28,920 bases of DNA from an uncultured archaeon (GCA_964612625.1 CAZTCK010000001.1:34284-63203), one strand, 5' to 3'. Shown: positions 4,692 to 28,920, numbered from the stretch's first letter. Notes: generated from the letters alone by a model not told the origin. A program made the numbers and translations.

Positions 4692-5519
4692 ATGCATGCA
4701 CGAAAAACGATACTGGATGAGATTGTTGATACCGAAAGACCAGTAACCTGTATATGTCCGGAAAGCCCGGTTGTGTGCAGAAAAGATTCCAGCATAAAGG
4801 ATGTTCTTAAAATCATGCTCGGGAAAAAGTACAGAAAACTTCCGGTACTTGACAAATCAGGGCGTTTAAAAGGTGTTATTACCTCTGTAGACATGCTGAA
4901 TCTTCTCGGCGGCGGCGAAAAATACAGGACATTCAGGAGATGCAGGGAAAGCCTCAGAGCAAAGATTGAAAAATTCATGACAGACCGTGCGGCAACAATA
5001 GAACCGAAGACGAGCATAGGCGAAGCTGCAGATGTTTTCAGAAAGGAGGGCAGGGGATTTTATCCGGTTGCTGATTCGGGAAGGATAGTATCTGTTGTTT
5101 CCGAATGGGATATCGTGAAACTGCTGAAAAAACCGACAGGAATTAAGGTTTATGAGGTTATGTCAGAAAGGCCGATTGTGGCAAGGGGAGACTACATAGT
5201 ATACGATACTGCTAAAATGATATGCAGGGGAGGCTTCAGGAGATTGCCGGTTGTCGAAAACGGGATACTGACAGGAATAGTGACACCAACCGATATTCTC
5301 AACCATTTCATAAGGGGCGGATCAAAAAACCTTCTGCATGACGCAACACCCCTGGAGATGATTATGAAGAAGAATGTGGTGACGGTCAGTCCGGATGAAG
5401 ACATCTTTTCTGCGGTAAAAACCATGAAAGGCAGGAGAGTCGGAGGCATGCCTGTTGTGGAAGACGAGGAACTTCTTGGTATAATAACCGAGAGGGACAT
5501 ACTGGATGTAATCGCATGA
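4692..5519 (+). CDS. Four-CBS-domain (two Bateman module) protein
   Basis: Repeated CBS motifs (YRKLPVLD..GVITSVD; GFYPVAD..VVSEWD; FRRLPVVE..GIVTPTD; VGGMPVVE..GIITERD). ATG 4692 preferred over the track's GTG 4677. Confidence 0.9.
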   Translation: MHARKTILDEIVDTERPVTCICPESPVVCRKDSSIKDVLKIMLGKKYRKLPVLDKSGRLKGVITSVDMLNLLGGGEKYRTFRRCRESLRAKIEKFMTDRAATIEPKTSIGEAADVFRKEGRGFYPVADSGRIVSVVSEWDIVKLLKKPTGIKVYEVMSERPIVARGDYIVYDTAKMICRGGFRRLPVVENGILTGIVTPTDILNHFIRGGSKNLLHDATPLEMIMKKNVVTVSPDEDIFSAVKTMKGRRVGGMPVVEDEELLGIITERDILDVIA

Positions 5520-5965
5520 AAAAAATAGACGAAGAGGAAATGAACAGAATTATAGAAGAACTGAAAGACGCCCTTGTTGTGGTAGAGGGCAAAAGAGACG
5601 AAAAAGCTTTAAAAAGCCTCGGGGTGAAAGATATTATTACCATCGACGGGAAACCGCTTTACGAAGTGGCTGAAATCCTATCGAGGTCAAAAAAGGACAT
5701 AGTCATACTGACAGATTTCGACAGAAAGGGCAGGGAGATGAGAAATAAGCTGAGAAACCTGCTCCAGAGACGCGGGAAACATCCCAATTCAAAATTAAGA
5801 GGAAAGATAATGTCTTTGGGAAGAAACAAAATCGAAGACTTCGGAAATCTTGATATCCGAAGCTCTCTTAAGGAGGTTGATGTTTATGTCAAAACTTGCA
5901 CCAAGTTCAATAAAATACGTGATAAAAGCGGAAATAGACGCAAAAGGGGTAATAGAGAAACCTGA
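5516..5965 (+). CDS. Small stand-alone Toprim-domain protein (RNase M5/primase-like)
   Basis: VVVEGKRD and ILTDFDRKG (conserved E and DxD); ATGA coupling to the CBS gene; 3' tail overlaps dnaG. Confidence 0.88.
   Translation: MKKIDEEEMNRIIEELKDALVVVEGKRDEKALKSLGVKDIITIDGKPLYEVAEILSRSKKDIVILTDFDRKGREMRNKLRNLLQRRGKHPNSKLRGKIMSLGRNKIEDFGNLDIRSSLKEVDVYVKTCTKFNKIRDKSGNRRKRGNRET
5871..5880 (+). promoter_or_regulatory. Shine-Dalgarno site of dnaG
   Basis: AGGAGGTTGA with ATG 5886 at canonical spacing. Confidence 0.7.
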
Positions 5966-7070
5966 TGTTATAGGGGCTATTTTTGGTCAGACCGAGGGTT
6001 TGCTCGGTCCGGATCTCGACCTCAGGGAGCTCCAGAGAACCGGGAGAATAGGGAGGATCGAGGTCAACATAAAATCGGAGAAGGGCAAATCACACGGGGA
6101 GATTATAATACCTTCTTCTCTTGACTCAGCCGAGACAGCCCTTATAGCAGCAACGCTCGAAACTATAGAAAGGGTAGGTCCCTGCTCGGCAAAGATAACG
6201 CTGAAATCAGTAGAAGATACAAGAGAAGCAAAAAGAAAATTTGTGGTGGAAAAGGCCAAAGCGATACTCAAGGAATTGCTTGACAAGGGCATACCGGATA
6301 CGTCAAAAATAGCAGAGGAGATAAAGGAGGAGATAAAGACCTACGAAATAACAACATATCACGGACTTCCGTGCGGCCCCAACCTTCTTGACTCAGAAGA
6401 GATAATCATCGTTGAGGGAAGGGCAGACGTGATAAACCTCGTGAAGTACGGAATAAAGAATGTAATAGCCATAGAAGGGAGTTCGATTCCGCAGGCTATA
6501 ATTGACCTTTCGAAAGAGAAGATAACAACAGCATTCCTCGATTCGGACAGGGGAGGAGACCTGAACCTCAAAAGCCTGCTGGAAACCGCGGACTTGGATT
6601 ATGTAGCCATCGCTCCCGAAGGAAAGGAGGTGGAGGAACTCTCGAAGAAGGAGGTTTTCAAGGCACTGAGAGAAAAGGTTTCTGCTTCTCAGTTCAAGAT
6701 GGAAAAGCACAACCAGGCAGACAGGAAGGAAAAACTACCTGCCAGACAATTTGCAAAACCACAGCCGAAAACAGCAAAGATAACAGAGGAACAGAGAAAA
6801 ATTTTCAAAAAAACCCTGGACGAGCTCATAGGGACACGCGCTGCGTGTATTTTTGATTCAGACTTCAATCTGCTCGGGAAGGTCCCGCTGAAGGAGCTGC
6901 AAAACACGCTGAAAACACTGGACAATCCGTATGCGGTGATATTTGACGGCAAGGTGGATTACAAACTGGATATGATCGCCAGAAGGAAGGGTATAAAGTT
7001 TCTTGTGGGGATGGAAAAGGAGAGAATGAAATCGCATATAAACATACTCTCCAAGGAAGACCTATCATAA
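5886..7070 (+). CDS. dnaG: Archaeal DnaG-type primase (exosome-associated DnaG)
   Basis: KYVIKA..GVIEKPDVIGAIFGQTEGLLG.DLDLRELQ.TGRIGRI, ETALIAATLETIERVGPC, IIVEGRADV and DSDRGG. Start placed at ATG 5886 from the SD. Confidence 0.96.
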   Translation: MSKLAPSSIKYVIKAEIDAKGVIEKPDVIGAIFGQTEGLLGPDLDLRELQRTGRIGRIEVNIKSEKGKSHGEIIIPSSLDSAETALIAATLETIERVGPCSAKITLKSVEDTREAKRKFVVEKAKAILKELLDKGIPDTSKIAEEIKEEIKTYEITTYHGLPCGPNLLDSEEIIIVEGRADVINLVKYGIKNVIAIEGSSIPQAIIDLSKEKITTAFLDSDRGGDLNLKSLLETADLDYVAIAPEGKEVEELSKKEVFKALREKVSASQFKMEKHNQADRKEKLPARQFAKPQPKTAKITEEQRKIFKKTLDELIGTRAACIFDSDFNLLGKVPLKELQNTLKTLDNPYAVIFDGKVDYKLDMIARRKGIKFLVGMEKERMKSHINILSKEDLS

Positions 7071-10921: not shown

Positions 10922-11865
10922 TCTCTCACACCTTCAGTCAAAACCCTGAATACAGCTTCGCCCTCCGGAAGGTTCGGGGAGTCTATGAGCTTTGCGATTC
11001 TCTTTTCACCTTTTGACTTTCTCAGATAAACGCGAAACGTCGCCTGGTGTCCAAGTATGTGCCCTCCGATAGGGGCGGTTGGGTCGCCAAAAAGAACATC
11101 CGGTCTTGCCATAACCTGGTTGGTTACATAAATCGCAAGGTTATAGACGTCTGCCAGTCTCTGGAGATGATGGAGATGACGGTTGAGTTTTTGCTGGCGG
11201 TCTGCAAGCGTCCCTCTTCCTGTATAATCCGAACGGAATGAGGATGTGAGAGAGTCTATAATCATAAGTTTCACATTTTCTTTCTTTATAATATCCTCCG
11301 CCTTTTCAGCGAGCAATACCTGATGGTCAGAATTGTACGCTCTCGCAACGAAGATGTTTTCAAGCGTCTTGTCGGGGTTCAGACCAAGTGCCTCGGCCAT
11401 CTGTTTTACCCTTTCGGGTCTGAACGTCTGTTCGGTGTCTATGAATATAACCTTTCCCTCAAGACCTCCTTTTTCTTTTGGTAACTGGACAGAAACTGCC
11501 AGCTGGTGCGCAAGCTGGGATTTTCCGGAGCCGTATGCCCCGTGCATCTCGGTTATTGCCTGCGTTTCAACACCACCGCCGAGAAGGCTATCAAGCGCTT
11601 TGGAACACGTAGTTATTTTGCCTATGTTTTCTCTTTTTTTGAGAACATCCTTTGCTGACTCAAAACCCATTTTTAGTTTCTGTCTTGCGGCTGCAATAAT
11701 TTTGTTTGCGGTCTCCACCCCTATTCCCGTTGCTGCAGAAAGCTCCCCGGCAGAAGAAGCCGCAATGCTCATAAGATTGTCATATCCGGCCTCTTTCATC
11801 TTTTCCAAGGTCTTTTCACCGACACCCGGAAGACTTTCTATATCCTTTGTCATATCAATCGGCAT
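10918..11865 (-). CDS. radA: DNA repair and recombination protein RadA
   Basis: N-terminal HhH (LPGVGEKT), LLGGGVET, Walker [32 protein letters not shown] and GGHILGH; no intein. Start 11865 or 11853. Confidence 0.98.
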
Positions 11866-11885
11866 TTATATTTCATTTTAATATA

Positions 11886-12896
11886 TTAATCTTTAACTCT
11901 CATCTTCCCAAGAAGTTTTTCCGCTTCTTTCTTGGGGTCTGCCTCTTCGACCCAGTTTGCCACCAACTCAAGTCTTTCCGTTATCCTGTTCCTCCTGAGC
12001 CTGCCCCTTATTATAAATTCCTTCCCGAGTGGCAATTCTTCGTACACCTGAGCCGGTTCGCCCATTTTTCTCAGTTCATCCACACTCCTTCCGATAATTT
12101 TTTCGGCAAGCTCCCTGAAAAAGACGGCATTCACATTTCCGGACCCGTCATCTATTACACCCGAAAGGACGAGCGTATACTTTGGCTCCACGCGGTTGTG
12201 CTCTCTGCATTTCCAAGCATCCCCTTCCCTTTCCAGTCTGGACTCGCATACAGGGCATACTTCAAAAAAGAGATTTTTTCTGAAAATCTGGACAAGAGAT
12301 GCCCTGACTTCAACGTATTCCCCTTCTTTGAGATCGCATATGCTCTTTACCTTCAATTCTTGGTTCTCCTGGCCCGAATCGGCAACTTCATGTATTTCGA
12401 TATCGGACTTTTCCATCCGCCCTCCTCTACCGAGCCGTATCTCGCAACCACCCATTCCATTTTCCTTCACGTAACCTCCGGTTATCTTCACAACATCACC
12501 AATCTTCACGTCAAGTTTATTCAGAATGTCTATTTCCCTGTCCCAGAGAGACACCCTCGCGGTTCCCGTTTCATCACCTATCGTAACATTCACAACGCTC
12601 CCCTTTCTCCCTCCTTTCTCGAAATCCCTCCTTTCGGATATGTTCACGACTTTTCCCACAACATCAACCAGACGCATCCCAGGAATCACATTCTTTATCT
12701 TGAGCGTCCGCTTTTTGACTTCCCTGAAAAGATTCACCCCGAGTTCTTTCCCGACTATGTATGCGGCACCTTCTGGTGATACCAGGCCGGAAAGTTCAAC
12801 CTGCTTTTCCTCTATCTTCTTTTTCACTTCCTCTTCCGAAAGCCCGGAACCTTTTGCAATTTCCCCGACAATCTCCTTTAGGGAAAACATAAACAT
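11886..12896 (-). CDS. rpa: Replication protein A (OB folds plus Zn finger)
   Basis: N-terminal helical GLVSPEGAAYIVGKELGV, OB fold (IGDETGTARVSLWD), second OB fold with CPVC..CREH zinc finger and DDGSGNV. Start 12896 or 12890. Confidence 0.88.
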   Translation of the reverse strand: MFMFSLKEIVGEIAKGSGLSEEEVKKKIEEKQVELSGLVSPEGAAYIVGKELGVNLFREVKKRTLKIKNVIPGMRLVDVVGKVVNISERRDFEKGGRKGSVVNVTIGDETGTARVSLWDREIDILNKLDVKIGDVVKITGGYVKENGMGGCEIRLGRGGRMEKSDIEIHEVADSGQENQELKVKSICDLKEGEYVEVRASLVQIFRKNLFFEVCPVCESRLEREGDAWKCREHNRVEPKYTLVLSGVIDDGSGNVNAVFFRELAEKIIGRSVDELRKMGEPAQVYEELPLGKEFIIRGRLRRNRITERLELVANWVEEADPKKEAEKLLGKMRVKD

Positions 12897-17835: not shown

Positions 17836-20445
17836 ATGAAAGAAAAAAAGGTTTACTTTTTCGGGGAGAGAGGAAAAGAAAGCAAAAATCTGCTTGGCGG
17901 CAAGGGAGCGAATCTGGGTGAGATGACAAAAATAGGCCTGCCCGTTCCGCCCGGTTTCACGATTTCGACAAAGGTATGCCTGGACTTCATAAAAACCGGA
18001 AAATGTCCGAAGGGACTGAAGAAGGAGATTCATGCGAATTTAAGAAAACTCGAAAGGAAGATGGGAAGAAAATTTGGTGACGAAAAAAAACCGTTGCTTG
18101 TTTCTGTGAGGTCGGGTGCCCCGATATCAATGCCCGGGATGATGGACACTGTTCTGAACCTCGGTCTCAATGAAAGGACGTTACGCGGCCTTGAAAATAT
18201 GAGCGGGGACGCGAGGTTTGCGTGGGATTCTTACCGAAGGTTCATACAGATGTTTGGTGATGTCGTACTCGGTGTGGAACACGCAAAATTCGAGAAGATT
18301 CTGGACAGGTACAAGAAGGGGAGGAAGGACACGGATTTGAAGGTCGATGAACTGAAGAGAATAGTGGAAGACTACAAAAAACTCGTAAAGAAAGAAACCG
18401 GGAGGGCATTTCCTGACGATCCTGAAAAACAGTTGCACATGGCAATCAGCGCGGTGTTCAAATCCTGGAATAACAAGCGTGCGAAAATCTACCGGAAACT
18501 TCACGGCATTCCCGATGATATGGGTACTGCTGTGAATGTTCAGGCCATGGTGTTCGGGAATCTGGGCTGGGATTCAGGAACGGGTGTTGGGTTTACGAGG
18601 AACCCCTCAACGGGCGAAAATAAACCATACGGGGAATATCTCCTCAACGCACAGGGCGAGGATGTCGTTGCGGGGATACGAACACCAAAACCCATATCCG
18701 AGCTCAGGAAGGATATGCCCAAGGTTTACAGGGATTTAATGAAGGTCTACAAACTTCTCGAAAAACATTACAGGGACATGCAGGATTTTGAGTTCACGAT
18801 AGAGAAAGGGAAGCTTTTTGTCCTTCAGACAAGGACAGGGAAGAGAACGGCACAGGCAGCGGTTAAGATCGCAGTGGATATGGTAAAAGAGGGTCTGATA
18901 ACGAAAGAGGAAGCAGTAATGAGAATAGAGCCGAACCAGATAAATCAGCTGTTGCACAAACAGCTCGACCCGAAGGCAAAGGAGAAGGCAAAGGTCATCG
19001 CGAAAGGTCTGCCTGCCTCTCCCGGGGCAGCAGTCGGTATGGCGGTCTTCACCGCGGACAGGGCGGAAGAACTCGCCAACAAAGGAAAGGATGTCATACT
19101 CGTGAGGAACGAAACCTCGCCCGAAGACATAGGCGGCATGTCAGTTTCGAAGGGCATACTTACGGCAAGAGGGGGGATGACATCGCACGCCGCAGTTGTA
19201 GCGAGGGGGATGGGAAAGTGTTGTGTTGCGGGATGCGAGGAAATAGCGGTGAATGAAGAGAAAAAGATGTTCAAGGTTGGTGATGTTCTGGTCAAAGAAG
19301 GGGACTGGATAACACTGGATGGAGGAACGGGCGAGGTGATATTGGGCAGGCTTTCTGTCATCGACCCGCAGTTGAAGGGCGAATTCAGAACACTCATGAA
19401 ATGGGCTGACGAGTTTCGCAGACTCAAGATCAGGACCAATGCTGACACCCCGAAAGACGCAGGGAGGGCGAGGGAATTCGGAGCTGAAGGGATAGGTTTG
19501 GCAAGGACAGAACACATGTTTTTCGAGGGAGACAGAATAAAGGCCGTACGTGAGATGATACTGGCTAGGGATGAAAGAGGGAGGAGAAAGGCGCTTAAAA
19601 AACTGCTCCCGATGCAGATGAACGATTTTGTGAAGATTTTCAGGGAGATGAGTGGCCTGCCGGTTACCATACGCCTGCTGGACCCGCCGCTTCATGAATT
19701 TTTGCCAAAGAAGGATAACGAAATAAAAGAACTCGCAAAGGAAATGGGTGTGACTTTTGAGGAGCTGAAGGAAAAGGTCGAATCGTTGAGCGAATTTAAT
19801 CCGATGCTCGGATTCAGGGGTTGCAGACTTGGAATAGTGTACCCGGAAATTCCGGAGATGCAGGTAGAGGCGATAATCGGGGCCGCCATTAAGGTCAACA
19901 AATCCGGAGGGAGGGCCTTGCCTGAAATAGAGATACCAGTCCTCGGAAGCGTCGAGGAAGCAAAAGTCATGAGGGAAACGATAGACAGTGTTGCAAAGAA
20001 TCTTATAAAGAAATCCGGCGTGAGAGTCAGATACAAAGTCGGTACCATGGTGGAACTTCCAAGAGCGTGTGTTGTTGCCGATAAGCTTGCGGAGTTCATG
20101 GACTTCTTTTCATTCGGAACAAACGACTTAACACAGACGGTTTACGGGTTCTCCCGTGATGATGCGGGAAAATTCATACCAAAGTATATAGAGATGGGAA
20201 TTCTAAAGGAAGACCCATTCCAGATACTCGACAGGGACGGGGTTGGGTCTCTCATGAAAATGTGCGTCAAACTCGGAAAAAAGACAAAACCGAAAATTGA
20301 GATAGGAATTTGCGGGGAGCACGGAGGGGAGCCGAAATCAGTCGAATTCTGCCATATGATAGGACTTGACTACGTCTCCTGCTCACCATTCCGCGTTCCC
20401 ATAGCAAGACTCGCAGCAGCACAGGCGAGGATAAAATATAGATAG
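17836..20445 (+). CDS. ppdK: Pyruvate phosphate dikinase
   Basis: LLGGKGANLGEM, LLVSVRSGAPISMPGMMDT, NAQGEDVVAGIRTP, LQTRTGKR, phospho-His motif GGMTSHAAVVARG, FSFGTNDLTQ and GICGEHGG. Confidence 0.98.
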   Translation: MKEKKVYFFGERGKESKNLLGGKGANLGEMTKIGLPVPPGFTISTKVCLDFIKTGKCPKGLKKEIHANLRKLERKMGRKFGDEKKPLLVSVRSGAPISMPGMMDTVLNLGLNERTLRGLENMSGDARFAWDSYRRFIQMFGDVVLGVEHAKFEKILDRYKKGRKDTDLKVDELKRIVEDYKKLVKKETGRAFPDDPEKQLHMAISAVFKSWNNKRAKIYRKLHGIPDDMGTAVNVQAMVFGNLGWDSGTGVGFTRNPSTGENKPYGEYLLNAQGEDVVAGIRTPKPISELRKDMPKVYRDLMKVYKLLEKHYRDMQDFEFTIEKGKLFVLQTRTGKRTAQAAVKIAVDMVKEGLITKEEAVMRIEPNQINQLLHKQLDPKAKEKAKVIAKGLPASPGAAVGMAVFTADRAEELANKGKDVILVRNETSPEDIGGMSVSKGILTARGGMTSHAAVVARGMGKCCVAGCEEIAVNEEKKMFKVGDVLVKEGDWITLDGGTGEVILGRLSVIDPQLKGEFRTLMKWADEFRRLKIRTNADTPKDAGRAREFGAEGIGLARTEHMFFEGDRIKAVREMILARDERGRRKALKKLLPMQMNDFVKIFREMSGLPVTIRLLDPPLHEFLPKKDNEIKELAKEMGVTFEELKEKVESLSEFNPMLGFRGCRLGIVYPEIPEMQVEAIIGAAIKVNKSGGRALPEIEIPVLGSVEEAKVMRETIDSVAKNLIKKSGVRVRYKVGTMVELPRACVVADKLAEFMDFFSFGTNDLTQTVYGFSRDDAGKFIPKYIEMGILKEDPFQILDRDGVGSLMKMCVKLGKKTKPKIEIGICGEHGGEPKSVEFCHMIGLDYVSCSPFRVPIARLAAAQARIKYR

Positions 20446-21141: not shown

Positions 21142-22647
21142 ATGAAATTTTATACATTCCTTGCCCTGTCCTTGCTGTTCCTTGCGGGGAGCGCGGATGC
21201 CCTCATTATAAATGAGGTAGTTCCGAATCCCGTTAACAGGAATAACGAATGGGTTGAACTATACAACCCGGAAAATGCGGACATGAATTTTTCACTCTGG
21301 TTAATAGGAGATGACGAAGAAGCCGATGAAATAACATGTCACACCATTGAGAATTGTTCGCTGGAAACAAACGAAACGTACATACTGATAATAGGGCGCG
21401 GAGCCAACATATCGGACATAACAAACGAGAGCGTGACTTATTTTTACGTCGATGATATGAGAATAGGCAATTCCTTGAGCAACACCGGGGACAACGTGAG
21501 CCTCTACAATTCAACAGGTCCTGTTGATAACGTTGTCTACCCTCCCTTTTCAGACAAAAAGGGCTATTCATGGGCGAGAGACGAAAAAGGAAACTGGTCT
21601 TATTGTATTTTGCCGACGCCCGGGAAGCCCAACATTTTCACAAACACCTCTGAAAACGAAACCGAAGAAAATCAAACAGAAATTGATAACGTGTGTGATC
21701 TCCACCTCTGGATAAAATGCAACAGTACATTCGGTCTGGAAAGCAACAAGTATTACCCGATGGTCGAAGACCTGAGAGGCGGGAGTTTCAGGCCGGAGGT
21801 CGAATACTGGATAGAGGACATGTTCGGCAACATCGTGAGACCGAAGCGGAGAACCAACAACACCAATGTCGCCAAATCATGGAAACCGCCTGAAATCAAA
21901 GGAACGGAAGCGTATGTGATACGTGCGGTGATAACGAATATTGTGTGCAACGACACCAATATCTCCAACAATCGCGCAGAAAAGGTTATTGTAGTCAAAG
22001 GGAACGAACCATATTCAGAATGTGTATGCGAAACAAAGATTGTAGAAAAACCGTGCTCCTGCAGTCCGTGTCCGAAATGCATTTCTAGGGAAGAGAAAAA
22101 CAAAAGGCATGAGGAATTCGAAATACTTTCGTATCCGGTTTCCGTGAGAATAGGCGAAGATATCACGGTGGAACTCAGGATAAGAAACCCGTTTTCCCAT
22201 GACAGGAATTACACGGTTTATTCATACGCGTACAGCAGAAATAAACCGATCTCTCTCGGTTTCGACGGGAACCGCTGGCTGAGTGGATGGGATGCGAACA
22301 AACAGGAAATTTCACTCTCCCCGAATTCCTCCATCATCCTTGAGCTGAAGAACAGAATAGCGAACGCCACAGAACCCGGGAAGTATAAACTCAGGGTGAG
22401 GATACTTTGCAATGGGAAAAAACACGACATAACGAAGGATATCATGGTGAACGAAGGCATAGTGGTCCCTGAAAACCCTGAAAACAAAACCGAAAACAAA
22501 ACATCCGAATATGAAACAACTGAAAAACACGATTTTGAAAGACACGACAGAACACCGACAGGCCGGGTGATTTCAAGCGGTGATAACTGGTTCTCAGCTT
22601 TCGTTGAAAACGTAATCAATTTCTTTAAAAACCTGCTCAGTTTATAA
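21142..22647 (+). CDS. Secreted lamin-tail-domain (LTD) surface glycoprotein
   Basis: Sec signal peptide (..LAGSADA), LTD motifs IINEVVPNP..NEWVELYN, LSNTGDNVSL, YSWAR, PTPGKPN. Ig-like beta-rich domains follow. About 20 N-x-S/T sequons by hand count. Cys-rich CVC..CSCSPCPKC linker and amphipathic C-terminus. Confidence 0.82.
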   Translation: MKFYTFLALSLLFLAGSADALIINEVVPNPVNRNNEWVELYNPENADMNFSLWLIGDDEEADEITCHTIENCSLETNETYILIIGRGANISDITNESVTYFYVDDMRIGNSLSNTGDNVSLYNSTGPVDNVVYPPFSDKKGYSWARDEKGNWSYCILPTPGKPNIFTNTSENETEENQTEIDNVCDLHLWIKCNSTFGLESNKYYPMVEDLRGGSFRPEVEYWIEDMFGNIVRPKRRTNNTNVAKSWKPPEIKGTEAYVIRAVITNIVCNDTNISNNRAEKVIVVKGNEPYSECVCETKIVEKPCSCSPCPKCISREEKNKRHEEFEILSYPVSVRIGEDITVELRIRNPFSHDRNYTVYSYAYSRNKPISLGFDGNRWLSGWDANKQEISLSPNSSIILELKNRIANATEPGKYKLRVRILCNGKKHDITKDIMVNEGIVVPENPENKTENKTSEYETTEKHDFERHDRTPTGRVISSGDNWFSAFVENVINFFKNLLSL

Positions 22648-22915: not shown

Positions 22916-23677
22916 ATGGCAAGGATTATTGCTGTATCCTCCGGTAAGGGTGGCGTCGGGAAGACGACACTCGTTGCGAACCTCGCTGCTGCCCTCGCCC
23001 GATACGGAAAATCGGTTGTAGCCCTCGACGCGAATCTCACGACATCCAACCTTGCCATACACCTCGGCATGCACCTCTACACTCGAACACTCCACGATGT
23101 TCTGGAGGGGAAGGCGAGGATAAGGGATGTCACATACGAACACAAATCCGGTTTTAAAATCGTTCCGGCTGACATATCATTCAGAAGGATAAGGGATGTG
23201 AAAACGCACGAATACCTCGATATTTTTTACAAACTCATCGAAGACCACGACTTCGTTCTGATAGATTCGCCCGCGGGTTTGGGGAGAGACTCGATCGCAA
23301 CGATAGAGGCGGCGGATGAACTCATAACCGTAACAAACCCTGAACTTCCCGCTGTAACCGATGCGCTCAAGCTGAGTCTCATCGCCAAAAAATACTCCAC
23401 ACATAATCTGGGTGTGGTTGTTAACAGGATAAAAAGGGAATCGCATGAGGTCCCTGTTGAACACATAGAGAAGATGTTAGGCCTGCCGATAATAGGACGA
23501 ATTCCTGAAGACAAAGAAGTCCGGAAGGCGATCGCTCTGAAGGAGCCGGTTGTCTCCCACAACCCGAAGTCTATCGCTGCGCAACATATGAAAGCGATTG
23601 CGGCGAAACTTATCGGGGAAGAATATGAACCGAAAATCCCGTGGGGTCTACGTCTGTTCGGCTGGCTGACGAGGTAA
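22916..23677 (+). CDS. minD: Archaeal MinD-family ATPase
   Basis: Deviant Walker A SGKGGVGKTT, LDANLT..NL, LIDSPAGLG, VTNPE..AVTDA, VVNR, IPED..V; amphipathic C-terminus LRLFGWL. Confidence 0.9.
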   Translation: MARIIAVSSGKGGVGKTTLVANLAAALARYGKSVVALDANLTTSNLAIHLGMHLYTRTLHDVLEGKARIRDVTYEHKSGFKIVPADISFRRIRDVKTHEYLDIFYKLIEDHDFVLIDSPAGLGRDSIATIEAADELITVTNPELPAVTDALKLSLIAKKYSTHNLGVVVNRIKRESHEVPVEHIEKMLGLPIIGRIPEDKEVRKAIALKEPVVSHNPKSIAAQHMKAIAAKLIGEEYEPKIPWGLRLFGWLTR

Positions 23678-24376
23678 TCGCCCGGACATTCTCGCCACGA
23701 GAACGCTTATTTCAAAAAGTATCATCATAGGCAAAGCAACGAGTACCTGCGTTACAGGGTCGGGAGGCGTTATGACCGCAGCAACCACGAATATGAGGAT
23801 TACCGCATAACCTCTTTTTTCCGACAGACTTTTTGCATCTATTATTCCGGCCTTAACCAGAGCGAGCGAAATCACGGGCAACTCGAATATCACGCCCATC
23901 GTTATACACGTGAGGAAAACGAAGTTCACGAAGTAGTTCACGCTCCAGAGGTTCGCTATTCCTGCAGAAGAGGCGAGTGAGCTGAAAAACCATATTATGA
24001 CCCTGAGCAGGATGAAATACGAGAAAAGGAAACCTGTCACGAAAAGCACGGACCCGGAAACTATAGACAGCTTCGCTATTTTCCTCTCCCTTTCATTCAG
24101 CCCCGGTTTCATGAAGGCGAACACGTGATAGAGAAGAAGAGGGATGGAAAGAAGGAGCGCGAAGAATATACCGATGTTTATCTTCACCAGGACGTATTCC
24201 AGCGGATGTGTAACGATCAGATGAACGTCAGGAGAAAATAGGTCAGAGTTCACCCTGTTCATTATGTGGTCACTCGCGAGAAAGCCGATTATGAAGAACC
24301 CGAGGAAAACAATGGTTATCACAAGTAAGCGAAACCTCAGCTCGCTTAAATGCTCTAAAACGCTTTTCTCTTCCAC
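23648..24376 (-). CDS. tatC: Twin-arginine translocase subunit TatC
   Basis: EHLSELRFRL, HPLE, PGLNERE, FELP, ITPPDPVTQ and LFEIS; six hydrophobic segments; GTG start after AGGTG. Confidence 0.95.
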   Translation of the reverse strand: MEEKSVLEHLSELRFRLLVITIVFLGFFIIGFLASDHIMNRVNSDLFSPDVHLIVTHPLEYVLVKINIGIFFALLLSIPLLLYHVFAFMKPGLNERERKIAKLSIVSGSVLFVTGFLFSYFILLRVIIWFFSSLASSAGIANLWSVNYFVNFVFLTCITMGVIFELPVISLALVKAGIIDAKSLSEKRGYAVILIFVVAAVITPPDPVTQVLVALPMMILFEISVLVARMSGRLPRQPAEQT

Positions 24377-24389
24377 AGAATTAACACCT

Positions 24390-24560
24390 TTAACCCGCGG
24401 GTTTTTTCCTTCGCTTCCTCTTCGGCTCCTCGATCTCCACGCTCTTCTTGTATTCCCTCACCGCTTTGCCTAACGCCTTCGCGAGTTCAGGAAGTTTTTT
24501 CGGACCGAGTATTATCAGGATTATGAAGAGGATTATCAGAACTTCAGGCAAACCTATCAT
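24390..24560 (-). CDS. tatA: Twin-arginine translocase subunit TatA
   Basis: MIGLPEVLIILFIILIILGPKKLPELAKALGKAVREYKK (TM helix, G-P hinge, amphipathic helix). ATG 24560 preferred over TTG 24572. Confidence 0.93.
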   Translation of the reverse strand: MIGLPEVLIILFIILIILGPKKLPELAKALGKAVREYKKSVEIEEPKRKRRKKPAG

Positions 24561-24607
24561 GCGAATCCCCAATATTTTACTTAATTCCCTAATTTATATA
24601 CTTATTT

Positions 24608-26761
24608 ATGGGCCTCGATTTAATACGGGGGAAAAGGGAGAAACTTCTGTTCTTCGCGATAACTTCCCTCGGCGTTTCATCTATCGTCACACAGCTCTTC
24701 CTCATGCGCGAGTTCCTGAACGTGTTTTACGGGAATGAGCTTGTTTTCGGCGTGATCCTGGGGAACTGGCTGCTGCTGACGGGCATAGGGAGTTATGCGG
24801 GGAAAGCGAGTAAAAAGGTGAAGGACAAAACAAAACTCCTCGTTTCTCTCCAGCTTTTGATCGCGGTTCTCCCCTTCTTCTCACTCGCATTCATCCGTGC
24901 GCTAAGGATGGTTCTCGTCCCCGGTGAGGCGGTGGATTTCGCGCACATCTTCCTCTCGAGTTTCGTGATACTCCTTCCCTACTGCGTGATTTCGGGGTTC
25001 CTCCTTACCCTTGCCTGTTCTGTCTTCTCACTCAAACGTTCCGGTGAGGATATAGGGAAGGTCTACCTGATGGACAATATAGGCGATATCCTCGGGGGTT
25101 TCCTCTTCTCCTTCATCCTGGTCTTCCTTTTCGACCCATTCCAGATGGCGTTCTTCCTTCTCTTCCTCATTCTGGTGTCAGCGTACTTCCTGGGCTCCTA
25201 TAACAGAAATAATATGCTTCGATTCATCGTGCTTGTTTCTATCGTTTTCTCGCTTTTCCTCCTCCCCCTCGATCTCAACTCCCTGACGCTCGGTTTCCTG
25301 TTCCCCTCCCAAACCATCGTATTCCAGAAATCCTCCCCTTACGGGTATATCGTGGTAACCGAAACTTCAGGCCAGCTAAACTTCTTCGAAAACGGTCTTC
25401 CTCTTTTCTCGACGGAGAACACGATCGAAAACGAGGAGAACGTTCATTACGCGATGGTGCAGCGTGAGAAACCGCGAAACATCCTTCTGATTTCCGGAGG
25501 CGTGGCGGGGACGACAAGTGAAATTCTGAAGTATAATGTCACGAGGATCGATTACGTCGAGCTCGATCCTTTGATAATTGAGCTGGGGAGAGCGTATACA
25601 AACAGCCTGGATGACGGAAGAATACGAACGTTCATGACGGACGGGCGGATGTTCGTGAAATTCGTGGACAACGAGTATGACGTCGTGATAATCGACCTCC
25701 CCGACCCGAGCACCGCGCAGCTCAACCGTTTCTATTCCCTCGAATTCTTCCGCGAGGTCAAGCGCATCCTTTCGCCTTCCGGCGTGGTTTCGCTGAGTCT
25801 GTCGTCATCTCCGAACTACATGAACTACGAAACCATCCGTCTCAACGCGATAGTTTACCGCACGCTGAAATCCGTTTTTGAACACGTGATCGTGATCCCC
25901 TCCGGGGACGAAAATTACTTCCTTGCTTCAGATTCTCCTTTAAGTTATAACATTTCCGGCCTGGTGAAGGAAAGGGGGATAGAGACGAAATACGTGAACG
26001 AACACTACCTGAAAGGGAAGCTCACGGAAGAGCGGATAAATTACGTAAGGAATGCGATCTCGAAGGAAAAACGGATAAACACGGACTTTGTCCCCCTCGC
26101 CTACTATTACCATCTCCTTTACTGGGAAAGCGAGATGGGCGGGGGAATATGGATAGTTTTCGTTATAGCGATAATCCTCGTTTTTCTCCTCCTTCGCTCC
26201 TCCCCCATCCCCTTCGCGATATCCACGACCGGATTCGCCGCTTCTTCCCTCGAAGTCATCCTCCTCATCGGCTTCCAGATCCTCTACGGCTACGTTTATC
26301 AGTACGTGGGCGTTATAGTCGCCTTTTTCATGCTGGGCCTCGCGATCGGTGCGTATTACGCGAACCTCACGATCAAAAAGAGAAGAAGGAAGGACATGGT
26401 GAAAATCGAACTCTCCATATTTTTGTTTTCCCTCTCGCTCCCCTTCGTTCTCCTCTTCCTCTCCTCTCTGAAAAACGAAGCGTTTGTTTCGCTTTCTTCC
26501 CTTATCTCATTCCCAATACTCACGTTGATCATCTCCGCGCTTGTAGGATTCGAATTCCCGATCGCCTCGAAATTGCACACGCGAAAGAAAGAGATCGAGC
26601 ACGCAGCGGGTGTTCTCTACGCCTCCGACCTCATCGGAGCGACAATAGGGGCGTTAATAACATCGACATTCCTCATCCCGATCCTCGGCGTGATCAACAC
26701 GTGCGTGCTCGTGGGCATAACGAATCTGGTTAGTGGAGTGGTGGTGTGGAAAACGAGGTAA
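24608..26761 (+). CDS. Polytopic membrane protein with central spermidine-synthase-like (class I SAM-dependent) domain
   Basis: N- and C-terminal homologous multi-TM modules flank SSPYGYIVV, PRNILLISGG, YVELDP, DGRMFV, YDVVIIDLPDP and FYSLEFF..LSPSGV. This is the fused MFS-like/spermidine synthase architecture; activity is unproven. Confidence 0.85.
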   Translation: MGLDLIRGKREKLLFFAITSLGVSSIVTQLFLMREFLNVFYGNELVFGVILGNWLLLTGIGSYAGKASKKVKDKTKLLVSLQLLIAVLPFFSLAFIRALRMVLVPGEAVDFAHIFLSSFVILLPYCVISGFLLTLACSVFSLKRSGEDIGKVYLMDNIGDILGGFLFSFILVFLFDPFQMAFFLLFLILVSAYFLGSYNRNNMLRFIVLVSIVFSLFLLPLDLNSLTLGFLFPSQTIVFQKSSPYGYIVVTETSGQLNFFENGLPLFSTENTIENEENVHYAMVQREKPRNILLISGGVAGTTSEILKYNVTRIDYVELDPLIIELGRAYTNSLDDGRIRTFMTDGRMFVKFVDNEYDVVIIDLPDPSTAQLNRFYSLEFFREVKRILSPSGVVSLSLSSSPNYMNYETIRLNAIVYRTLKSVFEHVIVIPSGDENYFLASDSPLSYNISGLVKERGIETKYVNEHYLKGKLTEERINYVRNAISKEKRINTDFVPLAYYYHLLYWESEMGGGIWIVFVIAIILVFLLLRSSPIPFAISTTGFAASSLEVILLIGFQILYGYVYQYVGVIVAFFMLGLAIGAYYANLTIKKRRRKDMVKIELSIFLFSLSLPFVLLFLSSLKNEAFVSLSSLISFPILTLIISALVGFEFPIASKLHTRKKEIEHAAGVLYASDLIGATIGALITSTFLIPILGVINTCVLVGITNLVSGVVVWKTR

Positions 26762-26767
26762 TATGAA

Positions 26768-28177
26768 TCACTCCTCCCAAACTTCCGCCTGATACGTTTC
26801 GATGCGAACGTCGGGTTTCGTCCAGCAGTCGGGAGGTGATCCCTGTTTCAGGCAGAGTCTCGAAAGAAAGTCCTGTTTGTTGGGAAGCGAGCCCCAGACC
26901 TGCGGGAGATACGTGGATGTTCGCCCGCGATAGTGTATAACGACCCCGTCCACCCCCGGTCTGAGCTTTTCGAGGAGGTCCTGCGGACTTTCGAAAGCCA
27001 ACGGTTTCGGAACGGAGAGGACGGAGATTTCGATCTTTATGTCTTTCAGTTCTTCATATGTTACGGCTTCGAATCTCGGATCGTTAAGAGCGGCGTTCAC
27101 CGCGTTGTCTATGACGCATTTATAGAGTTCTTCCTGCGGGAGGATGTGCCCTATACATCCGCGGAGGTTTCCGAATTTGTTGAGCGTGACGAAGCACCCG
27201 CGTATTTCTCTCAACTTCAGCGTGAGTTCGCTCGCTTCGACCTTTGGTTTGCCCTTCCCGCTCAAATAGGATTCGAGGGTTTGCCTCGCGAGTTTCGTGA
27301 GGAACTCCCTTTCCTCTTTCGAAAAGCCCGTTTCGTAAAATGCGATGGAAGCGTAGCCAACGACGCGCGATTTATCCCCGGCTGTATCGCCCGAATTCCT
27401 GTAATCGAGCAGTTTCCCCTCCCATCCAAAATCCTTCGCGAGATGCATGAGCGTCAGGATGGGGATTTTCCCGCATGCCTCGCATGCGTCCATCCCCTCA
27501 AAATCGAGCGAGGGGATAGAATGAATACAAAACGCATCCAAACTCTTCGCCTGTTCATAGGGGTAGTAATGCGAAAGGTCAGAGCTCGCGATAACGAGCG
27601 TCCGGTCATCAATGTATTTCGAAAGTATCTTCGCGAGGGTTTCAGGATCTATATCACCGACAACAATCGGGATGATCTCGAAATCGTACAAAACCTTCTG
27701 CAGGAACGGGATCTGAACCTCCACCGAGTGTTCTTTCGCATGAATCCGCTCATCGTAAAAGAAATATCTCTCCTTCCGTAACCCGTCCGCTTTCTTCGAA
27801 ATTCTTACGAGTCCCAGCGGGGTCTCGTAGTGGGTCGCGTTCGGGATGGAAAAACCGGAAAAACGGGCGTGATGCGAAGGACCGAGTATTATGACCGTGT
27901 CGTAGCGTTCGCCCTCGAGCTGTTTGTATCCGTAGGCGGCAACAGGGCCGGAGTAGATATAACCCGCATGCGGCGAAACGAGACCTCTAACCTTCGTCAA
28001 GCTTTTCTCCGCCTGCGAAAGGTATTCCGATATTATGGAATCGAGCTCATTCGCGTCCGCGGGGTAGAAGGCCCCTGCGACATTCGGCTTCTTCACAATC
28101 ATCTTCTCGCCCCCTTCGGTTACACATCCTGAAACCAGGAGGACGAATAAAATCACGAGCACGAACCTCAAATTCAT
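26768..28177 (-). CDS. amrB: AmmeMemoRadiSam protein B (Memo)-protein A (AMMECR1) fusion with lipoprotein-type signal peptide
   Basis: Memo motifs VAGAFYP, PHAGYIYSG, GPSHH, EHSVEVQ, SSDLSHY, CG, NSGD. AMMECR1 motifs GCFVTL, LRGCIG, DPRF, EISVLS, YLPQVW. N-terminal MNLRFVLVILFVLLVSG|C. ATG 28177 overlaps the amrS stop (ATGA). Confidence 0.93.
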   Translation of the reverse strand: MNLRFVLVILFVLLVSGCVTEGGEKMIVKKPNVAGAFYPADANELDSIISEYLSQAEKSLTKVRGLVSPHAGYIYSGPVAAYGYKQLEGERYDTVIILGPSHHARFSGFSIPNATHYETPLGLVRISKKADGLRKERYFFYDERIHAKEHSVEVQIPFLQKVLYDFEIIPIVVGDIDPETLAKILSKYIDDRTLVIASSDLSHYYPYEQAKSLDAFCIHSIPSLDFEGMDACEACGKIPILTLMHLAKDFGWEGKLLDYRNSGDTAGDKSRVVGYASIAFYETGFSKEEREFLTKLARQTLESYLSGKGKPKVEASELTLKLREIRGCFVTLNKFGNLRGCIGHILPQEELYKCVIDNAVNAALNDPRFEAVTYEELKDIKIEISVLSVPKPLAFESPQDLLEKLRPGVDGVVIHYRGRTSTYLPQVWGSLPNKQDFLSRLCLKQGSPPDCWTKPDVRIETYQAEVWEE

Positions 28178-28920
28178 AACTTCCACACCCCCGCTATCGG
28201 CTCGCCACAGAAGGCGCAGGAATCGTTTTCGATGTGATTCTGAAGAATCGAATAACCTTTCCTTTCGATAACGATTTTCCCGCAGTGCGGACAGTAAGTA
28301 TTCTCCCCCTCATGCCCCGGGACATTCCCTATGTACACGAATTTCAACCCGACGTCCATCGCGATTTCCCTCGCTTTCTCCAGCGTTTTAACGGGCGTGG
28401 GAGGGAGATGTTTCAGTTTGTATTCGGGATGAAAGCGTGAGAAGTGGAAGGGGTAATCCCTCCCAAGATTTCGCGCAATCCACTCACACATCTCCCTTAT
28501 CATTCCGAAATCATCCGTGTACGTGGGGATGACGAGGTTTGTGATCTCAAACCACACGTTTTCGCTCTTCAGGATTTTCAGCGTGTCCAGGACCGGCTGC
28601 AACCGACCGGCATTGAGCGTGTTGTATATTTCCTCCCTGAAGCTTTTGAGATCGACGTTCGCCGCATCCAGATATTTGCAGAGGTCACGAAGTGCTTCTT
28701 CGCTCATGTAGCCGTTCGTTATCCAGAGGTTCTTTATACCATGCGAACTCGCTAGCTTCGATGTATCGTACATATACTCGTAAAACGCGGTGGGCTCGGA
28801 ATAAGTGTAGGCGATGGAAGCGCATTTATACGCCAGCGCATTCTTCACAACATCTTCCGGGAAGAGTTCAACATTTTTCGTGTCTTCCGGTCTGAACTGC
28901 GAGATTTCCCAGTTCTGGCA
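28174..28920 (-). CDS. amrS: AmmeMemoRadiSam radical SAM enzyme, partial (5' end beyond the right edge)
   Basis: The frame stays open to the window edge and reads CQNWEISQ (end of the CxxxCxxC motif), then AYTYSEP, ITNGY, AANVDLK, EITNLVIP, HFSRFHP, YIGNVPG and TYCPHCG. Confidence 0.93.
   Translation of the reverse strand, partial: CQNWEISQFRPEDTKNVELFPEDVVKNALAYKCASIAYTYSEPTAFYEYMYDTSKLASSHGIKNLWITNGYMSEEALRDLCKYLDAANVDLKSFREEIYNTLNAGRLQPVLDTLKILKSENVWFEITNLVIPTYTDDFGMIREMCEWIARNLGRDYPFHFSRFHPEYKLKHLPPTPVKTLEKAREIAMDVGLKFVYIGNVPGHEGENTYCPHCGKIVIERKGYSILQNHIENDSCAFCGEPIAGVWKL

Follow-up and report, generated by a model that had tools for sequence, protein, structure and literature searches.

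We analysed a stretch of 28,920 nt of DNA from an uncultured archaeon (GCA_964612625.1 CAZTCK010000001.1:34284-63203), called the window throughout, and concentrated on a cluster of five genes at its end (23648-28920), in which genes of the twin-arginine translocation (Tat) system lie beside an apparently exported variant of the AmmeMemoRadiSam system. The cluster comprises tatC and tatA, a gene for a 717-amino-acid (aa) membrane protein with a spermidine-synthase-like domain, which we named SpeEmem, an amrB-amrA gene whose product (AmrBA) fuses a Memo and an AMMECR1 domain, and the 3' part of amrS, which encodes the radical S-adenosylmethionine (SAM) enzyme of the system. A preliminary description of this DNA had placed the five genes in the same way, and the family models, scoring above their cut-offs, agree with it (Table 1). 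The tight packing that it described was found as well: the convergent SpeEmem and amrBA genes are separated by 6 nt (26762-26767), and amrS is coupled to amrBA by an ATGA overlap of stop and start codons (28174-28177). The same amrS-amrBA layout is present in L010, L011, L012 and L130.

Table 1. Features of the cluster, with positions counted from the first letter of the window and model scores followed by curated cut-offs
Feature	Position	Strand	Description
tatC	23648-24376	-	242 aa; PF00902, 9e-57; TIGR00945, 176 bits (cut-off 133)
tatA	24390-24560	-	56 aa from ATG 24560; PF02416, 1.9e-17; TIGR01411, 57.8 bits (cut-off 53.9)
tatA/SpeEmem divergent spacer	24561-24607		47 bp, AT-rich, two TATA-like stretches
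SpeEmem	24608-26761	+	717 aa; PF01564 at residues 274-431; NF037959, 'fused MFS/spermidine synthase', matches too
amrB-amrA fusion	26768-28177	-	469 aa from ATG 28177; TIGR04336, 263 bits (cut-off 26); TIGR04335, 197 bits (cut-off 99); PF01875; PF01871
AMMECR1 domain	~26777-27295	-	
Memo domain	~27344-28087	-	
AmrBA lipoprotein-type signal peptide	28124-28177	-	MNLRFVLVILFVLLVSG, followed by C
amrS	28174-28920	-	C-terminal 248 codons only; TIGR04337, 281 bits (cut-off 220)

The amrS gene leaves the window inside its CxxxCxxC motif, and about 135 N-terminal residues, including the signal, lie beyond position 28920. The missing 5' end is supplied by a sister contig of ~89% DNA identity (L130), which has the same amrS-amrBA junction. 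Its AmrS (P0121) is the closest full-length homologue, with 94% identity to the window fragment, and its N-terminus reads MTRREFVKKGLLLAAGVGIG / MTRREFVKKGLLLAAGVGIGAYAF (MTRREFVKKG), a canonical twin-arginine signal. Similar N-termini were found in L010, L011 and L012, whose AmrBA homologues are 76%, 66% and 65% identical to that of the window and whose AmrS proteins of 393-395 aa read ...ITRREFVKKGLIIAAGIGIG, ...ISRRDFIKKGIVAAAGIGIG and ...ISRRDFLKKSLLAAAGIGLG, with the Tat motifs ITRREFVKKG, ISRRDFIKKG and ISRRDFLKKS, respectively. The pattern S/T-R-R-x-F-L-K followed by an uncharged hydrophobic region was seen in P0121, L010-L013, L095 and L112. Among the 120 closest AmrS homologues, 99 combine a twin-arginine (RR) motif with a hydrophobic stretch behind it, and most of the others are truncated or lysine-arginine (KR) variants. 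A Tat signal on AmrS had been predicted in the preliminary description, and from these relatives we infer that the window's own enzyme carries one. In a second sample, taken from the reverse scan described below, 50 of 55 full-length AmrS proteins encoded beside SpeEmem had an RR or KR signal. The Tat-signal model TIGR01409 (cut-off 16.7 bits) gave 21.4 bits for L013, with two other relatives narrowly below the cut-off. Full-length AmrS relatives reach 350-380 bits on TIGR04337, a model that begins only at about residue 60-85, and the Tat signal is therefore an add-on to the family core. Archaea and many bacterial phyla share the Tat consensus although identity between the catalytic domains is only 45-65%, and the radical SAM motif CxxxCxxC and the flanking Cys motifs are conserved. 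The close relatives L010-L012 showed no AxA cleavage site, which suggests that the signal may persist as an N-terminal anchor. Taken together, the signal predicts that AmrS is exported through TatAC as a folded protein with its iron-sulfur (Fe-S) clusters in place.

AmrBA, which begins MNLRFVLVILFVLLVSGC when translated from ATG 28177, carries a signal of another type. Its N-terminus fits the lipobox pattern [LVI][ASTVI][GAS]C, with LVSG preceding the Cys in the window and SGC kept in P0001-P0004 and L130. The DNA coding for the signal is near-identical in L130, the changes being conservative or synonymous, so the lipobox signal peptide noticed earlier on the fusion is confirmed and conserved in this relative. 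Enzymes for archaeal lipoprotein lipidation have lately been identified and AliA has been reported in DPANN, which makes a lipobox plausible for AmrBA here (PMC12462473). An N-terminal hydrophobic segment is present in 114 of the 120 closest fused AmrBA homologues, but only about 8 of the 120 have a lipobox; the rest have signal anchors, mostly a K/R-rich stretch followed by a helix. On average these homologues have 4.8 K+R in the 15 residues before the helix against 2.3 after it, and 0.9 D+E before it against 2.35 after it. By the positive-inside rule this charge bias therefore predicts an N-in/C-out topology in which the Memo-AMMECR1 domains face outward. An internal ATG (M29) was considered as an alternative start that would yield a cytoplasmic protein; it was rejected in view of the ATGA overlap, the conserved signal DNA in L130 and the 114 hydrophobic N-termini. 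The AmrB part retains the metal-site motifs of MEMO1 (PHAGY, GPSHH and SSDLSHY), and the AMMECR1 part has its motif RGCIG. Among the AmrB proteins that are encoded next to a Tat-type AmrS and have an intact N-terminus, 33 of 34 bear a signal.

SpeEmem is a dedicated fourth component of the exported cassette. An AmrS alignment was searched against one genome per species, and among the 80 best loci, which were annotated, the order amrBA-SpeEmem-amrS or a permutation of it was found in Bacteroidales, Desulfobacterales, Verrucomicrobiota, Ignavibacteriota, Planctomycetota, Omnitrophota, Aenigmatarchaeota and Altiarchaeota. Of 59 Tat-type AmrS genes, 42 had SpeEmem at a distance of no more than 6 kb, versus 5 of 19 signal-less ones (Fisher p ~9e-4, uncorrected for phylogeny), and 2 of these 5 adjoin a second, exported-type cassette. 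Conversely, when a SpeEmem alignment was used as the query (80 loci, the archaeal ones viewed with 7-kb flanks), amr genes were found at 69 of the 80 SpeEmem loci and at 46 of the 50 with at least 2.5 kb on both sides. In the classical triads of L005 and L008, AmrB and AmrA are separate proteins, and both signals and SpeEmem are missing.

An AF2 (AlphaFold2) model of SpeEmem built on 55 sequences (pLDDT 90.4, pTM 0.90) has seven transmembrane (TM) helices, a SpeE-like domain at about residues 222-510 and then six helices, the last of which is 53 residues long. A Foldseek search with the whole model returned only soluble aminopropyltransferases among the top 50; with the C-terminal helix block modelled alone the top 50 were all MFS transporters, at TM-scores of 0.5-0.65 and weak E-values of 0.025-0.2. 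Among the structures close to the TM block are the MFS lipid transporter Spns1 and the choline transporter FLVCR2. The Pfam MFS models gave no match to SpeEmem. Our reading of the model is a 6+6 MFS-like core with a helix-domain-helix insertion in its middle, the domain being placed between two central helices, a layout that resembles that of 14-helix MFS proteins. Across 49 members the K+R-rich loops average 3.2, 3.2, 2.6, 1.8, 1.9, 3.5, 2.1 and 1.8 such residues and the alternating poor loops 1.0, 1.7, 0, 0.24, 0.41 and 0, with the SpeE-like domain in the poor register. A short and fully hydrophobic helix stands on either side of the domain, and each of the two adjoins a K/R-rich loop, so that the N- and C-terminal blocks independently give the same orientation, and by the positive-inside rule the SpeE-like domain is predicted to face outward.

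With NF037959 and the PRK03612-type membrane polyamine aminopropyltransferases SpeEmem shares the PF01564 SpeE fold and a polytopic membrane region, and its archaeal orthologues are named 'fused MFS/spermidine synthase' by NCBI. It differs from them in that its scores lie far under the equivalog cut-offs, its motifs are degenerate, its domain is predicted to face outward and its gene is nearly always found in an amr cassette. At least 46 of the 49 members keep each of the nucleoside-site features E276, E318, D345 and P367. The dcSAM-selecting acid of GGG(D/E)G is absent (GGVAG in the window; S, G, A, T or N at that position in the family), as is the YHE tyrosine; the first, catalytic Asp of DxxDP is kept in the archaeal subgroup, but its position holds N, D or S in the family at large. 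The aminopropyltransferase equivalog models gave 87 bits (TIGR00417, cut-off 250), 109 bits (NF002010, cut-off 260) and 208 bits (NF002956, cut-off 472), and only the Pfam domain model was passed. A genuine spermidine synthase was rejected on these scores and the degenerate motifs, and for the same reasons the protein should not be named one.

Since SpeEmem occurs mainly with the exported variant and has both a core of transporter type and a fold that binds SAM-like nucleosides, we hypothesise that it supplies SAM or a SAM-derived compound, which fits an MFS-like core with an outer domain of nucleoside-binding type. SpeEmem would thus give the exported radical SAM enzyme something that the outside lacks, in our preferred reading by exporting and presenting SAM; alternatively, it might flip or present a membrane-bound substrate. 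The latter thought can be extended to a module that is exported but in which SpeEmem is a flippase or presenter of a lipid- or polyprenyl-linked substrate, or an enzyme acting on it, and AmrS leaves the cell with SAM already bound as a regenerated cofactor. The similarity of the TM block to Spns1 and FLVCR2 speaks for this, as do the facts that Tat exports folded, cofactor-loaded proteins and that some radical SAM enzymes, such as lysine 2,3-aminomutase, regenerate SAM. A further point in its favour is the isoprenoid modification to which an earlier computational study reportedly tied Memo-AMMECR1 contexts. We nevertheless regard it as unlikely, because the near-invariant E276, E318, D345 and P367 fit a SAM-like ligand better than a lipid, and the occurrence of SpeEmem with exported and rarely with signal-less cassettes suits the supply of an item that is normally cytoplasmic, neither point being decisive.

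Candidate redox genes accompany the cassette in several lineages. In the relatives of the window (L130, L010-L013), in Verrucomicrobiota and in Planctomycetota there is a protein of about 80 aa with two TM helices and two invariant His. It is encoded directly upstream of amrS, also has an invariant Gly and Arg, and has no Pfam match (L130:302-544, L010:8577-8819, L011:8573-8815, L012:8567-8809, L013:7601-7885, L001:13821-14081, L033:7672-7932, L036:7561-7836); in the window its place would be just past 28920. Other lineages have NosR/NapH-like proteins (FMN_bind and Fer4_5, sometimes with DsbD_2), stand-alone DsbD_2 proteins or DUF362 proteins with a Tat signal. These DUF362 proteins, about 330 aa long and each with a twin-arginine signal, are encoded by neighbours of the cassette in several bacterial phyla (L002, L003, L071, L079, L089, L091). 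A stand-alone DsbD_2 gene is found beside the cassette at six loci whose AmrS has a Sec- or lipoprotein-type N-terminus (L055, L056, L057, L075, L076, L092), and larger NosR-like proteins occur with AmrS of that type at L053, L054 and L081. Natural fusions of SpeEmem to a C-terminal Fer4_5 domain of NapH/NosR type are also found (P0313, P0322, P0327, P0334; ~955-971 aa), and they physically tie SpeEmem to a transmembrane electron-transfer module. The NosR/NapH-like and DsbD_2 families carry reducing power to the outer side of the membrane, which fits an outward-facing redox enzyme, and we regard them, together with the 2-TM di-His protein, as candidate electron conduits. The arrangement recalls the NosR/NapH and CcdA/DsbD conduits that feed periplasmic enzymes, in that FMN_bind+Fer4_5 and DsbD_2 proteins stand beside the cassette in several lineages and Fer4_5-SpeEmem fusions exist. 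Unlike there, no such conduit lies in the window, and the only candidate in its close relatives is the 80-aa protein.

In the archaea the cassette is also linked to the genes for its presumed exporter. Both tatA and tatC stand beside it in the window, in L010, L011 and L013 (Aenigmatarchaeota), L032 and L112 (Altiarchaeota), L095 (Nanoarchaeota) and L133, L137 and L138 (Woesearchaeota), in at least four gene orders or orientations and at least eight of the sampled DPANN/Altiarchaeota lineages. Bacterial adjacency was seen in two loci only, L043 (Omnitrophota) and L161 (Bacteroidales). The linkage proposed at the outset is thus conserved, both for SpeEmem and the amr genes and, through rearranged archaeal gene orders and two bacteria, for tatAC. 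It may be argued that the adjacency is inherited synteny devoid of functional meaning and that Tat serves substrates encoded elsewhere in the genome. The preliminary description itself cautioned that adjacency may be secondary; only about 29 kb of the genome is visible, only 2 of many bacterial loci share the arrangement, and the archaeal loci L140, L139, L206, L150 and L178 have the cassette or SpeEmem and no tatAC in their 7-kb flanks. We find this explanation improbable, since the adjacency recurs in Woesearchaeota, Nanoarchaeota, Aenigmatarchaeota, Altiarchaeota and one Omnitrophota bacterium with differing orders and orientations. Moreover, a reverse scan built on a four-sequence TatC alignment found the cassette beside every DPANN/Altiarchaeota hit and beside none of the bacterial and Thermoplasmata hits. 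Nor was a competing substrate seen: no other open reading frame (ORF) of the window has a twin-arginine signal, as had been stated before, and AmrS is the sole credible ORF with an RR signal in 197 kb of related DPANN/Altiarchaeota loci, which are centred on the cassette and thus do not amount to a genome-wide census. AmrS may be a main reason for the retention of tatAC in genome-reduced DPANN/Altiarchaeota.

The relation to the known AmmeMemoRadiSam system (TIGR04335 for AmrA, TIGR04336 for AmrB, TIGR04337 for the radical SAM enzyme) is close: all three models score above cut-off, the genes are adjacent and translationally coupled, and the CxxxCxxC, flanking Cys, Memo metal-site and RGCIG motifs are all kept. 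The classical triad differs in having no signals. In the exported variant a Tat signal precedes AmrS, a signal peptide or anchor precedes the AmrB-AmrA fusion, the cassette has a SpeE-like protein, read as 14-TM, as its constant fourth member, and there is linkage to tatAC and to genes for membrane redox proteins. The triad has been discussed as a cytoplasmic system for RNA-base modification (Balaji & Aravind 2007, PMC2034487). A module that is membrane-tethered and faces outward fits a substrate at the membrane surface better than RNA. Memo-AMMECR1 contexts were reportedly tied to nucleotide-base or isoprenoid modification in a computational study by Burroughs and colleagues (J Biol Chem). 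With Tat-exported Fe-S proteins, such as hydrogenase small subunits, Rieske proteins and NapG-type ferredoxins, AmrS shares an S/T-R-R-x-F-L-K motif on a protein that needs its clusters before export, and as in Rieske proteins its signal may be uncleaved and serve as an anchor; known Tat clients of this kind are electron-transfer subunits, however, and AmrS is a radical SAM enzyme. Its nearest characterised relatives are PflA and the glycyl-radical activases (3c8f, 4e-8; hits to TIGR02493), from which it differs by additional N- and C-terminal Cys motifs, scores far below the cut-offs of the activase models and the lack of a glycyl-radical enzyme partner. Since activases of the PflA type act on a partner protein, by analogy AmrS might act on AmrBA. 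A sequence search of the PDB returned no structure of AmrS, the AmrB-AmrA fusion or the membrane SpeE protein, and exact-sequence look-ups of the window's AmrBA (with two alternative starts) and SpeEmem matched no record. The searchable literature, which does not include the main computational paper (Burroughs et al. 2019), contained no functional study of AmmeMemoRadiSam, no Tat-exported radical SAM enzyme and no description of an exported variant. The exported cassette would thus be a variant of a known but uncharacterised system that we did not find described in this literature; parts of its context may have been mentioned earlier.

Combining these observations, we read the cluster, with a probability of about two in three, as an extracytoplasmic, membrane-tethered version of AmmeMemoRadiSam with its own export route, a version whose carriers, in samples chosen by similarity to the window's proteins, include archaea of DPANN and Altiarchaeota as well as many phyla of anaerobic bacteria. 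In this arrangement the PflA-like AmrS would be exported folded, clusters included, by TatAC and would stay anchored. AmrBA would be exported separately and held at the outer face, here by its lipobox Cys and in most relatives by a signal-anchor helix, on the same side as the SpeE-like domain. SpeEmem would do the supplying, and the electrons for reductive SAM cleavage would arrive through small membrane redox proteins, namely the 80-aa 2-TM di-His protein, the NosR/NapH-like FMN_bind+Fer4_5 proteins or DsbD_2. The three outer domains would then modify a substrate at the membrane surface. Of the interpretation offered in the preliminary description, the outward placement of AmrS and Memo-AMMECR1, as predicted from signals and charge bias, and the linkage of the genes are supported, and the supply of SAM is carried forward as a hypothesis.

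Several points weigh against this reading. The localisation is a prediction from signal peptides and the positive-inside rule, and the window's own AmrS N-terminus lies outside the window. The loci of the relatives were picked by likeness to the window's proteins, which biases the frequencies, and the Fisher test takes no account of phylogeny. In some relatives, mostly Omnitrophota, AmrS keeps CxxxCxxC and has a Sec-type or lipoprotein-type N-terminus; this is difficult to square with the export of an enzyme that carries Fe-S clusters, and passage of such an enzyme through Sec would be unusual. In SpeEmem the GGG(D/E)G acid is lost and the catalytic Asp often lost across the family, and the last helix is one continuous helix of 53 residues, which leaves the 14-TM reading and the position of the C-terminus unsettled. 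Moreover, we know of no source of SAM outside cells. A rival view is that the module is as cytoplasmic as the classical triad, its hydrophobic segments tethering it to the inner face, its RR motif not being a working Tat signal and tatAC being a housekeeping neighbour. Consistent with that view, the triads of L005 and L008 and second copies in L039 and L063 are signal-less and evidently cytoplasmic, the SAM and low-potential electrons on which radical SAM enzymes depend are normally found in the cytoplasm, tatAC is missing from the surroundings of most bacterial cassettes, and at a few loci a signal-less AmrS is paired with an AmrBA that has a signal; the last two points likewise weigh against the extracytoplasmic reading. 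The cytoplasmic view is quite improbable, however, in view of the full S/T-R-R-x-F-L-K motif with its uncharged hydrophobic region, which is kept across archaea and bacterial phyla whose catalytic domains are only 45-65% identical. Charge biases also give AmrBA an N-in/C-out topology and place the SpeE-like domain outside, the neighbours include redox modules of periplasmic type (FMN_bind, DsbD_2, Tat-signal DUF362), and the adjacency of tatAC survives several rearrangements in DPANN/Altiarchaeota.

The cluster lies in a resident chromosomal context, since the remaining genes of the window are archaeal housekeeping genes (ribosomal proteins L1 and L10, CCA-adding enzyme, RadA, RPA, RtcB, archease, a phosphoenolpyruvate (PEP)-utilising enzyme and MinD), and the best named relatives of the cluster proteins belong to Nanoarchaeia, Woesearchaeota, Aenigmarchaeota and Altiarchaeota, so that the DNA probably comes from an archaeon of DPANN type. 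The 47-bp spacer given in the preliminary description for the divergent tatA and SpeEmem genes holds if tatA starts at ATG 24560; from the alternative start TTG 24572, which would give 60 aa, it is 35 bp. In contig L129, which is 99% identical to the window and stops just past SpeEmem, tatA is called as 56 aa. The TATA-like stretches of the spacer (~24573-24580 and ~24594-24601) are putative promoters whose spacing would suit near-leaderless transcripts in both directions. On the other side tatC converges on an archaeal minD gene, with which it overlaps by 30 nt at the 3' ends (23648-23677). Beside minD lies a gene for a secreted protein of 501 aa (21142-22647), which combines a Sec signal peptide with a lamin-tail domain and has numerous N-x-S/T sequons; the gene stays beside minD in L011 and L129. 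The PEP-utilising enzyme, of the pyruvate phosphate dikinase (PPDK)/PEP synthase type, has 869 aa and no intein match in the window (17836-20445); in L011 (19448-21434) the product, as called, has 1298 aa and gives faint intein and LAGLIDADG matches. Two overlapping ORFs with a Toprim domain in each (5516-5965 and 5850-7070) may represent one primase-like gene with a misplaced start or a frameshift. Between amrBA and SpeEmem, L011 has a 473-aa ORF with no Pfam match (11460-12881) that is not in the window.

To our knowledge, radical SAM chemistry is regarded as confined to the cytoplasm, because it depends on SAM, on a reductant of low potential and on clusters that are sensitive to oxygen. 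A large and phylogenetically broad clade whose members bear canonical Tat signals would call this view into question, and it would imply a supply of both SAM and electrons across the membrane. It is possible, and we put this forward only tentatively, that a widespread radical SAM family works outside the membrane, exported folded by Tat, tethered next to its Memo-AMMECR1 partner, receiving SAM through a dedicated protein of MFS/SpeE fold and electrons through small TM redox proteins, and that the module is the principal Tat client in genome-reduced DPANN/Altiarchaeota. Both Memo and AMMECR1, which have been conserved between archaea and humans, are tied to human disease, and we know of no biochemical function for either. 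A membrane-surface Memo-AMMECR1 protein with fixed partners narrows the hunt for a substrate and offers exposed, experimentally accessible proteins. At the same time a context is assigned to many proteins annotated as 'fused MFS/spermidine synthase', which probably are not spermidine synthases, and the export of AmrS would give a concrete reason why very small DPANN genomes retain tatAC.

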